Sequence record: SRR20825019_415
DNA length: 45,540 nucleotides
Reading direction: 5' to 3' (one strand)
Part shown: positions 2,600-18,718 of the stretch, in pieces
Numbering within the stretch: position 1 is the first letter of the stretch
Layout: each line of letters begins with the position of its first letter
Translations under genes and position numbers: made by a program
Notes under the pieces: model-generated
The model's input: the letters and a program-made list of their open reading frames with translations, nothing else
Told to the model about the DNA's origin: nothing
The model's database searches: none

Positions 2600-3243
2600 A
2601 CCAGCCCCTTTGCACGGTCATTCAGCCGGGCATAAATAGCCCATCCCGCGCCAATCGCGCCCAAAACGACACACCCCCATTTGATCACGTCAGACAGGTA
2701 TGCGTATTGCTCAAGCGTGGACGAAATGTCTGCCGCTACAGGGCCGACAACCGCCATGACACCAGCTACAGACGCACCCTTGATCGTCCGCGACTGCGAA
2801 AGCGGGCGTTGCTGATCCAGCGCATCCTTGGCACTGACCGGCGCAGGCGTATCGATATCATTAAAGAACAGGTGGCCTGCGGTTTCAAAGCAAGGCACTT
2901 TGCCTTTGGCCCAGAATGTCTTTGAACGCACCGCGCGGGTCAGGTAATGCGTTGCCGTGCTGGTCTGATCTTCAAGCCGTCCCTCGACCGCAAGCTTGGC
3001 AATTGCACAGCATTTGTCAAACCACGCACCGGATGCACTCATGATCCGCGACAGGTTCGGGTCGTTCTGATTCCAGCAGGAAAACTGCCACGCCTGTTTG
3101 CACACCGCAGCCGGGGTTGATGGCCAGTTGCGATACCCAACCCGGTTCATCACAACACAGGCAATCGCCTGTGCATCCGCAACGTCATTTGCCTTGGCCT
3201 CGCCATAAATCGTCCGGGCCAGCGTATCAATCTGCAAATCCAT
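2596..3243 (-). CDS. Endolysin, SleB/Hydrolase_2-type, with C-terminal hydrophobic helices
   Basis: LARTIYGEA, VVMNRV, WQFSCWN, ATHY, GHLFF motifs; C-terminal TM-like segments. Confidence 0.88.
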   Translation of the reverse strand: MDLQIDTLARTIYGEAKANDVADAQAIACVVMNRVGYRNWPSTPAAVCKQAWQFSCWNQNDPNLSRIMSASGAWFDKCCAIAKLAVEGRLEDQTSTATHYLTRAVRSKTFWAKGKVPCFETAGHLFFNDIDTPAPVSAKDALDQQRPLSQSRTIKGASVAGVMAVVGPVAADISSTLEQYAYLSDVIKWGCVVLGAIGAGWAIYARLNDRAKGLV

Positions 3244-15486: not shown

Positions 15487-15563
15487 GCGCGAAACCTGAA
15501 ACATTTGACATAACTTATAAAGCAAGCGTAGCATTCCACCCTTGATTGCAAAGGGAGTCTCAA

Positions 15564-15857
15564 ATGCGCACCGCCCCATTCATTATTATCGCAGCGACAT
15601 TACTCACCGCGTGCGAGACAACCGACCGCGCTCGCGCTACTGAATTCGAACCACTACCAAATGGTGAATTTAGATATCGCGCCGATCAGCTTTATCCGTA
15701 CACGAATGAAGACCTGATCCGCTGGATGGAAACATCATTATCGGAAAACAACTACTGCCAGAATGGTTATCAAATCACAGAAACCAAAGAAGTTGTTAGG
15801 GCTCAAACGATATTTGGCACCGCAATGTCCAAGATTTTCTTTGGCAAATGCAAATGA
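15564..15857 (+). CDS. Lipoprotein moron (paralog of 45138..45452)
   Basis: Lipobox LTAC; SD GGGAG; AT-rich; antisense to the late operon. Confidence 0.8.
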   Translation: MRTAPFIIIAATLLTACETTDRARATEFEPLPNGEFRYRADQLYPYTNEDLIRWMETSLSENNYCQNGYQITETKEVVRAQTIFGTAMSKIFFGKCK

Positions 15858-15932: not shown

Positions 15933-16514
15933 TTACACGTCCCACGGCTTTGGCACCCCGTGGTAGGCAACAATCGCCGCGTGATCCGGGACGCCTTTGA
16001 GGCAATGTACCTTGTAACTGACAACTTCCCGCCCGAAGCGCGACGGGGCACGTTTTAGTGCGGCGGCAATAAATCCCTGATCGCCCCAGCAATCGCGATG
16101 ACGGCACCGCGCCATTGCCCCGTGCGGATCCGCACGAAACGCCTCATAGACCTCTCCCGGTGCATCACCGCACCATCCCATCACACCGGATGCCGGAAGA
16201 TCGGGCCGGTAGAAATCCGACAGCATGGTAAATTCGCGCACCGCCAGCGGCGCGATATCACCGACCACATCGGTATCAAGATCAAGATAGATCACCGACC
16301 CGGCAAACAGGCCGGGACGAAACAATTCGATCTTGGCAAACCAACCCGGCCAATCGTGCAAAAGATCAATACGATCACAATCGACCGAAACGTCAGACAG
16401 GCACACAAATCGCGCCGATGGCGTCGCCGCTTTCACCTGACCCTGCAGGCGCGATACATGCCAAGCCTGGTATTGCCCGCCGCTTCGCAAAACGCTGACA
16501 ACGGTCAATCCCAT
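15933..16514 (-). CDS. GT-A fold glycosyltransferase (GT8-like)
   Basis: GWFAKIELF, IYLDLD (DxD), ASGVM, GDQGFI, YHGVPKPW. Confidence 0.82.
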   Translation of the reverse strand: MGLTVVSVLRSGGQYQAWHVSRLQGQVKAATPSARFVCLSDVSVDCDRIDLLHDWPGWFAKIELFRPGLFAGSVIYLDLDTDVVGDIAPLAVREFTMLSDFYRPDLPASGVMGWCGDAPGEVYEAFRADPHGAMARCRHRDCWGDQGFIAAALKRAPSRFGREVVSYKVHCLKGVPDHAAIVAYHGVPKPWDV

Positions 16515-17056
16515 GCGAAAACATAATCCTTGTTAAACCGCGCCACGCATCTTGCGCCCCATTCTTCCATCAGCCGATTGGCCGCAAAAGGCGCAACGCC
16601 GTATCGCTGGCAAAGCCCGTTTTCCTCGATCATGACAACCGGCCGGTCACGCAGGATTATCCGCATTGCGCCCAGCAAGGCGAACCATTCGTACCCCTCG
16701 ACATCCAGTTTGATAAAATCGACATCGGCAATATCAAACTGGTCTAGCCGCACGATTTCAGTGCCATTACCTAATGCGACATGGGTTTGCCCGGTATTTT
16801 CCGTGCCAGATTGCATCGAACAACGGCCCCGCAATGCACCAAGGGCGGATTGGCAGACAATCGCACGCGGGTCGATCTTCTGGCAAAGGTCAGTCGGCTC
16901 GAACGCATAAACCGTATCGAACCTGTCACACAAAACCGATGTAAAAATCCCGCGATGCGCACCGCCATCAACCGCCGTGCGCCAGTTTTTCACGAATTTT
17001 AGCGCACCTTTCAGATGGGCCATGTCGTGATGATCAGGAAGGTCTTTCAAGGTCAT
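16505..17056 (-). CDS. FkbM-family SAM methyltransferase
   Basis: VDGGAHRG, VYAFEP, VDFIKLDVEGYE, RPVVMIE. Confidence 0.88.
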   Translation of the reverse strand: MTLKDLPDHHDMAHLKGALKFVKNWRTAVDGGAHRGIFTSVLCDRFDTVYAFEPTDLCQKIDPRAIVCQSALGALRGRCSMQSGTENTGQTHVALGNGTEIVRLDQFDIADVDFIKLDVEGYEWFALLGAMRIILRDRPVVMIEENGLCQRYGVAPFAANRLMEEWGARCVARFNKDYVFAWD

Positions 17057-17097
17057 GCCACCAACCCACCCTCAGACTTGACCGACGGATTATAAAC

Positions 17098-17367
17098 TTA
17101 ATCCATCAGACTGATTTGCTCACCATCTTCGAACTCGATGGATTTGACACGTCGCCACTTTTCCACCCCGTCACGGAGAGGATTAACAAAGAACGCTGCC
17201 TCTCCACTGATTTCGATTTCAGCCATGGTTATGTATATTTTGGCACATGACGGCACATCGACCGAAATTCCCCACTCGACGGCAGAGACGCCACGCAGCT
17301 CGTGCCCATCAGCAGAAACAATCTTGGTTCCGTGTGGTGTGCCGTCTGAGGTAATTTTCACATCCAT
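17098..17367 (-). CDS. Hypothetical protein (89 aa)
   Basis: MDVKITSDGTPHGTKI...; SD GGAG; overlaps the upstream stop codon. Confidence 0.6.
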   Translation of the reverse strand: MDVKITSDGTPHGTKIVSADGHELRGVSAVEWGISVDVPSCAKIYITMAEIEISGEAAFFVNPLRDGVEKWRRVKSIEFEDGEQISLMD

Positions 17368-18005
17368 GGGATATTCTCCAACCCCATCCGGGGAAAACAT
17401 TCAAGCCGCGTGTGCCGTGACGCATTGATCACCTGCACCCCGGCCCGGTCCAGATCGGGCAGCATGGTTTCGAAATTGGCCCGCCAGCGGGCGAAATCGT
17501 GATCCTGCGGGTTGTTCAGACCCGTCGGATGGTCCCCGAACCAGTGACGTCGGCCGTCATCGGCCACCCCCATGTCATAGCCCAGCAGAATGATGCGTTT
17601 TGCCCCAAACAGCACCGCCAGATTGATCGCCTGATATCCGCCATTGGCCCCGCGATGGATCACCGGGGGATTTAACGATATCCCCGGTTCATCAACACTT
17701 GGCACATGGCGCAGGCCGTGTATCAGGCTGGCTTGGCGGTCCTGGGTCCATTTTTCGCCGTCGAAGGCTTTGACGCCGTTGTGGTGGTCCCACCATTTTC
17801 CGTCGCAGGCGTAGAGGACGTCTGCGCCGCCGGTTCCGTCGGCTCCGATGGCGAGGTGCCAGGCATTGTTGACGGCGATGATCCGGCATCCAGCAGATCG
17901 GGCGTATTCGATGTCTGATCGGTCAAGGCTGGGTCCGTTTGCGGCGATGCAGACTGTTTGTCCGCGCCAGCGTCCGGCCCATTCGACTTTTTTGTCGGTT
18001 TGCAC
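17358..18005 (-). CDS. DUF115/MAF-like or sialyltransferase-like glycosyltransferase domain
   Basis: CIAANGPSL, IIAVNNA, ADVLYACD, NGGYQAINLAVLFGAKRIILLGYDM, VINAS. Confidence 0.75.
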   Translation of the reverse strand: MQTDKKVEWAGRWRGQTVCIAANGPSLDRSDIEYARSAGCRIIAVNNAWHLAIGADGTGGADVLYACDGKWWDHHNGVKAFDGEKWTQDRQASLIHGLRHVPSVDEPGISLNPPVIHRGANGGYQAINLAVLFGAKRIILLGYDMGVADDGRRHWFGDHPTGLNNPQDHDFARWRANFETMLPDLDRAGVQVINASRHTRLECFPRMGLENIPWM

Positions 18006-18178
18006 CGCCCGGTTTCCTCGGCAATGTCGGCAACACGCTGCGGCACCTGCCCGTCACCAACCGCCGCGCCATCGGCCACGACTTCATAGATGCCAGGCTG
18101 CACATCGCGCGGATGCATTTCACCGTTAAAGCACGCCTTGAATGCACGGGTAATCTGGATTTTTGCGAGTTTTGCCAT
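17723..18178 (-). CDS. Small head-operon protein with a Ser/Thr/Pro-rich tail overlapping the downstream GT-like gene
   Basis: ATG after the cement gene; about 64-aa N-domain plus an 87-aa tail with 42 S/T/P, 1 Arg and no Cys/Trp. Confidence 0.7.
   Translation of the reverse strand: MAKLAKIQITRAFKACFNGEMHPRDVQPGIYEVVADGAAVGDGQVPQRVADIAEETGRCKPTKKSNGPDAGADKQSASPQTDPALTDQTSNTPDLLDAGSSPSTMPGTSPSEPTEPAAQTSSTPATENGGTTTTASKPSTAKNGPRTAKPA
17987..17993 (-). other. Candidate -1 frameshift site A_AAA_AAG
   Basis: ACA AAA AAG in the frame of the 18178 ORF; the -1 frame is the GT-like ORF (AAA AAA GTC GAA TGG). Confidence 0.55.
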
Positions 18179-18185
18179 ATTAAAA

Positions 18186-18213
18186 CAGGGTGCCCGACCC
18201 ATCGGACACCCTG
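18186..18213 (-). terminator. Hairpin/terminator after the cement gene
   Basis: Minus strand cagggtgtccga-tggg-tcgggcaccctg followed by tttt. Confidence 0.6.
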
Positions 18214-18244
18214 CCTTTCACTTCAAATTACGTCAGATCGGCGA

Positions 18245-18718
18245 TCAGTCAGAAGTCGGCGCCAGCGCAGGATTGCCCAGCACGGCCACGAATGCCATCG
18301 GCGTTGCACCAGGCGTGTTTGCCGCGGTTGCGACCACACGGACATAGCGTTTCGTGCCAATATAGCCGACGCGATAAACCGTATCGTCCTCGGCGGCGTC
18401 ATCAACTGTCAGGAACACACCGGTTGAAGCATTTGGCGCAGTAACCGGCGATTTTGCCGACCCGACCAGCACATCATTGGCATCGGTCACATCGGTAAAA
18501 TCGGATGACTGGCTGTCACTGTGCTGCAGCTTGAACGCCCAGGACGGCTGCGGCGAGTTGGCGATATTTGCGACCGCCCCGACGCTGATCAGGAATTCCG
18601 ACGAAGAAAAACCGGCAAGATCAACGCCATTTGTCGGCGTCACGGTTGCGGTTGGTGCCCCGACATAGTGCGACACCGCCTTGATATTGGAATGAAGATC
18701 ACGACGGATCATATCCAT
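18245..18718 (-). CDS. Capsid cement/decoration protein
   Basis: Directly after the MCP; NGVDLAGF, LQHSD, VGYIGTKRYVRVV (beta-rich). Confidence 0.72.
   Translation of the reverse strand: MDMIRRDLHSNIKAVSHYVGAPTATVTPTNGVDLAGFSSSEFLISVGAVANIANSPQPSWAFKLQHSDSQSSDFTDVTDANDVLVGSAKSPVTAPNASTGVFLTVDDAAEDDTVYRVGYIGTKRYVRVVATAANTPGATPMAFVAVLGNPALAPTSD

Follow-up and report, generated by a model that had tools for sequence, protein, structure and literature searches.

The 45,540-nt stretch SRR20825019_415, referred to here as the window, carries on its minus strand two overlapping open reading frames (ORFs) that could be joined by a -1 ribosomal frameshift. All coordinates are those of the whole window. 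The first ORF begins at ATG 18178 and extends over 151 codons and a stop (17723..18178). Its opening 64 codons, from the ATG through AAG 17989-17987 (17987..18178), encode a small domain, which we call the N-domain, and the following 87 residues make up a tail rich in Ser, Thr, Pro, and Ala that overlaps the gene for a glycosyltransferase-like enzyme. The original prediction held that codons ACA AAA AAG (17995-17987) of the first ORF contain the slippery heptamer A_AAA_AAG in the correct phase and that a -1 slip there would fuse the N-domain to the enzyme. Read from the sequence, the heptamer (17987..17993) is indeed in phase with ATG 18178, and it is identical in three distinct groups of close relatives. 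Base 17987 would be read twice, and the resulting codon, GTC 17987-17985, lies in the frame of a 215-aa ORF (17358-18005) that encodes the enzyme. The predicted product lengths also proved correct: the 64 codons before the slip and the 209 codons that lead to the stop at 17360-17358 (17358..17987) give a fusion of 273 aa, and unshifted translation ends at 17723 with 151 aa. On its upstream side, the enzyme frame is open for 16 codons before GTG 18005, or 20 codons before the heptamer. This GTG (18003..18005) is a possible independent start for the 215-aa product. It is preceded at a distance of 10 nt by GAGG (18016..18019), which lies 22 nt upstream of the heptamer, and both elements are present as the original prediction had cautioned. 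A candidate stimulatory stem-loop (17930..17981) begins 5 nt 3' of the heptamer.

The -1 frame encodes what is predicted to be the core of a Maf/CstII-like glycosyltransferase. Residues 22 to 211 matched phrog_4603, labeled alpha-2,3-sialyltransferase (E = 7.3e-45; PHROGs has no curated cutoff), and residues 115 to 149 matched the MptE-like Pfam family PF01973 at 28.9 bits, below its cutoff of 34.6. In structural comparisons with the model of the enzyme (mean predicted local distance difference test [pLDDT] score of 91.1), the top match was 5mu5, a Maf flagellin glycosyltransferase, whose central domain gave Z = 16.3 (root mean square deviation of 3.1 over 185 residues). The archaeal kinase MptE came second (8sd5; Z = 11.1), ahead of Cst-I from Campylobacter (2p56; Z = 10.7). 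Foldseek assigned a probability of 1.00 to both 5mu5 and 1ro8. The modeled fold is thus Maf/GT42-like, which backs the earlier label of a glycosyltransferase-like protein. As in Maf and CstI/CstII, whose fold is GT42-like and MptE-like, the core superposes, and Maf too has extra domains around its core; here, however, the protein amounts to a core of about 209 aa, with a Pfam score that falls short of the cutoff. Since MptE scored about as high as Cst-I, the predicted fold does not settle the donor sugar or the activity.

In the model of the N-domain (mean pLDDT of 81.8), five short strands are followed by one helix and then a last strand. The domain matched no PHROG and no Pfam family (0 of 10 members), and a Foldseek search against the PDB returned nothing below an E value of 0.29; the weak rows, including GINS and the C-terminal domain of lambda gpFI, do not constitute evidence. 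A profile of the window-type N-domain matched 244 clusters at E ≤ 0.001 in a 50%-identity library. Among the best 150 of these 244 matches, 148 were 48 to 168 aa long, one was 195 aa, and one was 2,127 aa. The domain started at or near residue 1 in almost all of these 150, and none of them was fused in frame to the enzyme, the 195-aa match having a different tail. A search for homologs in longer proteins yielded only two products of frame-0 ORFs, of 151 and 168 aa.

Coding signals change frame close to the heptamer. Codon-position GC content agrees with frame 0 between approximately 18170 and 18020 and with the enzyme frame from approximately 17990 onward. Substitutions were tallied across the window and three close relatives, all distinct (groups L002, L004, and L006; L numbers designate loci throughout). 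Upstream of the heptamer, 18 of 20 substitutions were synonymous in frame 0, as against none in the enzyme frame. Downstream of the heptamer, within the overlap, 15 substitutions were synonymous only in the enzyme frame versus 7 only in frame 0, and past the frame-0 stop the corresponding counts were 44 and 9. The ratio in the overlap did not differ from that in the rest of the enzyme gene (Fisher P = 0.22). To judge from these substitutions, purifying selection acts on both coding parts.

The run of six A's at the slip site is genuine. In three sequencing runs, each from a different study, the contigs were identical with no indel, at word depths of approximately 7 to 500, although a comparison of contigs would hide rare variants. 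All other close relatives also have six A's, with the exception of one related contig (L008/L015; L015 positions 3001-3015) that has five, which brings a third frame into register with the enzyme. This variant could reflect an assembly error, a defective variant, or natural variation in run length. In runs of two studies with different organism labels, the region 17700-18300 lies on one contig each (approximately 45.5 or 49.7 kb) at word depths of approximately 230 and 500, and three more runs of the second study, under other organism labels, contain all sampled words.

To characterize the distribution of this arrangement, we surveyed relatives of the enzyme. Searching with the N-domain alone recovered only near-identical loci (n = 8). 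A search with the enzyme recovered 46 viral loci, and a profile of 18 enzymes added 80 more (the best 80 of 585 confirmed IMG/VR relatives), along with 20 loci in bacterial or metagenome-assembled genomes. The enzyme was present in 154 of 155 sources (absent from L007), and these, the window included, collapsed to 119 distinct loci. De-duplication was based on 300 nt inside the enzyme gene, and the five-A contig L015 was thereby merged with its six-A relatives. Iterative profile searching, seeded with 34 sequences of small upstream ORFs, detected an N-domain upstream of the enzyme in 71 of the 119 loci. All but two of these (n = 69) would require a -1 shift to reach the enzyme. One of the two, L038, is a natural in-frame fusion of N-domain and enzyme, and the other, L091, is in a +1 relation. 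In 51 of the 69 loci, the part of the enzyme frame that runs from the upstream stop to the enzyme's GPSL motif contains no ATG, GTG, or TTG. No N-domain was detected in the other 48 loci; 46 of these have a start codon of their own, in many cases about 21 codons before GPSL, and the remaining two (L048 and L117) have a -1-type upstream ORF with an in-phase G_GGA_AAC or A_AAA_AAG. By eye, small post-capsid ORFs in five loci (L029, L030, L032, L034, and L024) resemble the N-domain but stand in a +1 relation and finish close to where the enzyme itself starts; these were missed by the profile search.

In-phase heptamers of the form X_XXY_YYZ were found at the junction in 56 of the 69 loci with the -1 layout. 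When we counted heptamers of all phases in the junction windows of the 82 loci with a -1-type upstream ORF, 83 were in phase, compared to 23 and 9 in the other two phases. To reduce the effect of relatedness, 68 of the 69 loci were clustered at 60% enzyme identity, one being left out for want of an enzyme sequence long enough to align. At least one in-phase heptamer was present in 12 of the 15 clusters, compared to 3.7 expected from shuffles of codon order, and none of 200,000 simulations reached 12. Counting a cluster as positive if any member is positive favors large clusters; under a majority rule, the count was 11 of 15. The identity of the heptamer varied among loci. A_AAA_AAG was found in the window clade, L033, L116, L117, and L130; C_CCT_TTG or C_CCT_TTT in L060, L061, L063, L081, L084, and L135; and A_AAC_CCY and C_CCA_AAC/G in the large L017/L092 cluster. 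Fewer loci used G_GGA_AAA (L087 and L123), T_TTT_TTT (L027), or G_GGA_AAG (L068), the last followed by a frame-0 stop two codons after the site. Conservation of the heptamer in homologs and natural in-frame fusions had been put forward as ways to check the predicted slip. With 69 of 71 loci in the -1 layout, in-phase heptamers in 56 of 69, and one natural fusion, the survey supports it.

The same comparison speaks against another part of the original prediction, which regarded the frame-0 tail as acceptor-like. Beyond the start of the enzyme's open frame, frame 0 extends for 4 to 159 codons across the 69 loci, and the extension is short in most window-type relatives. In the window, the tail spans 76 open codons against a mean of 26 in synonymous shuffles of the enzyme gene, a borderline result (P = 0.05) that is not general. 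As described above, substitutions in the overlap follow the enzyme frame. We therefore read the frame-0 tail as a probable by-product of the overlap and not as a conserved acceptor.

Downstream of the heptamer, the composite stem-loop at 17981-17930 has a predicted free energy of -26.1 kcal/mol (z = -2.54), and 3 of 200 dinucleotide shuffles were as good. All four close relatives keep it: two one-sided changes leave pairing intact, and one pair is broken. No frameshift element in Rfam matched the region, where a search gave only one sub-threshold snoRNA row, and no tRNA genes were found.

Relatives of the enzyme also occur in 74 GenBank phage records, some of which resemble the window in layout. 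In Pseudomonas phage D3, the small orf6.5 follows the major head gene and is overlapped by the enzyme frame, with an in-phase C_CCA_AAG at the junction; the annotated start of orf7 cuts off the GPSL motif. D3 apparently carries the same unannotated layout. Phage PMG1 is arranged as D3 is, including the C_CCA_AAG site, and its enzyme is annotated from a GTG inside the small ORF. In "Tetraselmis viridis virus S20," the enzyme frame lacks a start, and four TGA codons in that frame end directly before an in-phase C_CCT_TTG. Psp6 has T_TTT_TTG about 40 codons before the core. Other phages are organized differently: PAJU2 and Mulvp2 encode the enzyme alone with its own start, and in P1, PmgO is annotated from a start of its own, with an overlap of the small pmgN ORF in another frame relation. 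The GenBank annotation of the enzyme is truncated in D3 (orf7, L155), S20 (L158), and Psp6 (L159), and the gene is almost wholly unannotated in Mulvp2 (L160). Neither of our two N-domain group profiles had a match at E ≤ 0.01 in the loci of D3, PAJU2, P1, S20, Psp6, Mulvp2, or PMG1, so D3, PMG1, S20, and Psp6 are claimed as examples of the same layout and not as carriers of small-domain homologs. Among cultured phages, we found no DNA match to the unit and no tblastn match to the N-domain. In their original records, the enzyme homologs of PAJU2 and Klebsiella phage Eowyn are labeled "structural protein," and these two homologs may have been found in virions.

Together, the -1 layout in 69 of 71 loci, the startless enzyme frames, the in-phase heptamers, and the L038 fusion make it quite likely, on sequence grounds, that a -1 ribosomal frameshift at A_AAA_AAG produces the fusion of N-domain and enzyme alongside a short product, as originally predicted. 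The ORF at ATG 18178 and the Maf-like glycosyltransferase ORF would then form a single recoding unit. Most ribosomes would stay in frame 0 and make the 151-aa protein, which consists of the N-domain and a nonconserved tail. A fraction would slip by -1 at 17993-17987, perhaps aided by the stem-loop 5 nt downstream, and make the 273-aa fusion. We infer both that slippage occurs in vivo and how often it does so. By analogy with IS3 OrfA/OrfAB, with gpG/gpGT, and with the flanking domains of Maf, the N-domain may serve as a targeting or assembly module for the enzyme. The ratio of the two products presumably matters. The enzyme, in turn, may act with the methyltransferase and glycosyltransferase encoded downstream on a glycan of the virion or of a cell-surface target. 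Initiation at GTG 18005 may add free enzyme.

A number of observations weigh against this interpretation. First, the heptamer is not rare: both strands of the window contain 8 copies of A_AAA_AAG compared to 5.2 expected, and 17 of 100 shuffles reached 8. The motif alone is not above chance. Above chance are its phase, its location where the coding frame switches, and the fact that it recurs in homologs, so the case rests on context. Second, the enzyme frame is not depleted of start codons, as 51 startless loci were observed against 54 expected from codon composition; the absence of starts alone is therefore no signal. Third, 13 of the 69 loci have no canonical heptamer and would need tetramer-type or imperfect sites, several of them having T_TTT_N (the L021 group) or C_CCC or G_AAC_CCT (others) at the homologous place. 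Fourth, longer and shorter cuts of the stem-loop region were not significant (z = -1.41 and -0.51), although the composite structure is better than the weak hairpin originally described. The relatives contain no compensatory change in the stem-loop, whose arms encode conserved residues, and downstream folding across the family was only mildly better than in mononucleotide shuffles (mean z = -1.13; z below -2 in 15 of 56 cases). Fifth, the N-domains fall into the window's type and a second, larger group, which hhalign related only weakly, with a probability of 29% (E = 6e-4), and their common origin is unproven from sequence comparison. Last, kinship among loci, together with a sample made up of the best 80 of 585 relatives and two smaller sets, means that counts of loci overstate independence.

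The start at GTG 18005 also counts against slippage, and the earlier caution about it still stands for the window clade. Unlike the 51 startless loci, this clade has a GTG and a GAGG at about the position where stand-alone enzymes begin, and slippage may not be needed to make the enzyme. All four distinct clade members have the GTG, which lies 23 codons before GPSL, compared to 18 to 25 codons for the first in-frame start in 23 stand-alone homologs. In dnaX, the stimulator lies about 10 nt upstream of the heptamer, and the spacing of GAGG in the window suits a Shine-Dalgarno sequence for the GTG better than a stimulator of this type. We therefore considered whether the locus holds two ordinary overlapping genes, in which case ATG 18178 would yield only the 151-aa protein, the enzyme would be made from GTG 18005 with GAGG, and the heptamer would be a coincidence of Thr-Lys-Lys codons. 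The 10-nt spacing, the presence of the GTG throughout the clade, its stand-alone-like position, the unremarkable number of heptamers in the window, and the choice of a comparable GTG by the annotators of PMG1 all fit this account. However, it would entail an unusual out-of-frame overlap of 282 nt, and the GTG is fixed anyway by the Arg-Cys codons of frame 0. Between the GTG and the heptamer there is a single substitution, which is silent in frame 0 but not in the enzyme frame. Above all, the 51 loci that have no such start keep the layout with in-phase heptamers. We consider the two-gene account unlikely, while noting that GTG initiation and the frameshift may operate together.

A fusion could also arise if RNA polymerase added an A to the transcript or if the length of the A run varied in the DNA by phase variation. 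The six-A site and the five-A variant in one contig are what such a process might look like. Six A's are short for efficient slippage by bacterial RNA polymerase, though, and most homologs use heptamers that contain no long homopolymer, such as C_CCT_TTG, A_AAC_CCY, and G_GGA_AAG, as would fit tandem tRNA slippage. No length heterogeneity was seen in the assemblies, with the proviso given above for contigs, and transcriptional slippage or phase variation is very improbable as the source of the fusion. Finally, the true gene could be a single in-frame fusion whose frame was broken by faulty sequencing or assembly of the A run or by a recent inactivating mutation, and homopolymers are indeed error prone, one contig has five A's, and L038 is a natural fusion, but the agreement among contigs of three studies, the six A's of the other close relatives, the recurrence of the same break in 69 distinct loci at nonhomopolymer sites, and purifying selection on both parts leave this hardly credible.

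The proposed recoding at the N-domain-enzyme junction has counterparts in better-known systems. In work by Xu, Hendrix, and Duda in 2004, the -1 frameshift of the tail assembly chaperones gpG/gpGT, which uses G_GGA_AAG in lambda, was reportedly found to be conserved in tailed phages. Like gpG/gpGT, the unit described here combines a -1 slip at a canonical heptamer within a structural operon with a short and a long product that share an N terminus, and in both systems the layout is conserved while the sequence and heptamer type vary; L068 even uses G_GGA_AAG. In contrast, the proteins are unrelated, the present unit belongs to the head module by the capsid and phrog_5707 genes and not upstream of the tape measure gene, and the extension is an enzyme that is often encoded alone, as in 46 of the 48 loci with no detected N-domain. 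We rejected identity with the tail assembly chaperone G/GT, as the unit is not located between the major tail protein and tape measure genes. Frameshifting in gpG/gpGT is among the phage cases listed in PMC10885494, as is extension of the capsid protein of Lactobacillus phage A2 (reference 41 therein). Capsid frameshifts of this kind, as in A2 and in T7 10A/10B, resemble the present case in producing a minor extended variant in the head region and differ in that the extended protein here is not the major capsid protein.

Insertion sequences of the IS3 family commonly use A_AAA_AAG to make OrfAB in addition to OrfA. With these the window shares the heptamer and a small N-terminal domain that occurs alone or joined to a catalytic domain, but the frame-0 ORF here runs well past the site. 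By analogy with OrfA, the small product presumably can compete with or regulate the fusion. The unit is not itself an IS3 OrfA/OrfAB pair, as no transposase or DNA-binding family was detected in either part and the -1 frame encodes a glycosyltransferase-like core instead of a DDE transposase. Escherichia coli dnaX, whose tau and gamma products depend on A_AAA_AAG, an upstream Shine-Dalgarno sequence, and a downstream hairpin, has the identical heptamer, and a stem-loop follows 5 nt downstream of it in the window. The slip truncates the protein in dnaX and would extend it here. A dnaX-type signal was rejected, since GAGG is 22 nt upstream of the heptamer and not about 10 and Rfam gave no match.

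Our search of the literature found no description of this frameshift, although frameshift catalogs may list the gene pair, and the GenBank records are unannotated for it. Conserved programmed frameshifts are few in tailed phages, the tail chaperone G/GT being the textbook case. The unit looks like another, situated in the head module and linking a small domain to a glycosyltransferase-like enzyme. For annotation, the consequence is that gene callers split or truncate the enzyme, as in D3, S20, and Psp6, with the GTG start of PMG1 and the 51 startless metagenomic loci as further instances. For the study of recoding, the many heptamer types at one homologous junction offer a natural series for examining efficiency, and the layout can be tested directly in D3 and PMG1, which are cultured phages. 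The cassette that the enzyme shares with a methyltransferase and a second glycosyltransferase makes the unit relevant to glycosylation of the virion or cell surface.

The unit sits between the capsid-side genes and the head-tail adaptor gene. Upstream, between the capsid gene and the N-domain, lies a gene for a 157-aa phrog_5707 protein (18245..18718, minus strand). A homolog is found directly upstream in all 10 window-type relatives examined, 9 of which were aligned with the window copy, and the protein is highly conserved, with a mean column identity of 70% over 10 sequences. The nearest named Atlas cluster (score of 0.92) has the name Bbp16 on 18% of its members, which is a lead only. A speculative extension of the frameshift interpretation is that the N-domain docks on the capsid or on the phrog_5707 protein, which would possibly be cement-like, that the frameshift fixes a low ratio of enzyme-bearing to plain protein, and that the enzyme, as a Maf-like nonulosonic acid transferase, is thereby recruited to the head or incorporated in it and glycosylates the virion. 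We regard this extension as doubtful. If true, it would represent a second widely conserved ratio-setting frameshift of tailed phages, located in the head module and comparable in spread to gpG/gpGT.

A terminator-like hairpin followed by four T's (18182..18213, minus strand) lies directly upstream of ATG 18178; it falls below the T-run rule of the terminator scan. Comparable hairpins precede the small ORF in L061, L062, L081, and L135, and an annotated terminator does so in PMG1. A stronger terminator-like hairpin (18772-18746, minus strand) follows the capsid gene of the window. These hairpins suggest that transcription is attenuated before the enzyme cassette.

Downstream of the enzyme, the cassette (15933..17400, minus strand) comprises an ORF at 17098-17400, an FkbM methyltransferase gene at 16505-17056, and a glycosyltransferase gene at 15933-16514. 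The annotations of D3, PAJU2, and Psp6 likewise place a methyltransferase after the enzyme gene, and those of S20 and P1 place a glycosyltransferase there. The ORF at 17098-17400 encodes 100 aa, shares 43 nt with the end of the enzyme gene, and belongs to no Pfam or PHROG family. Elsewhere in the window, we found no canonical heptamer between 12700 and 13140. Between the head-tail adaptor gene and the glycosyltransferase cassette, the plus strand carries a 103-aa ORF (15546-15857) with a lipoprotein-like N terminus, in which a hydrophobic stretch is followed by Cys; this ORF is possibly a moron.

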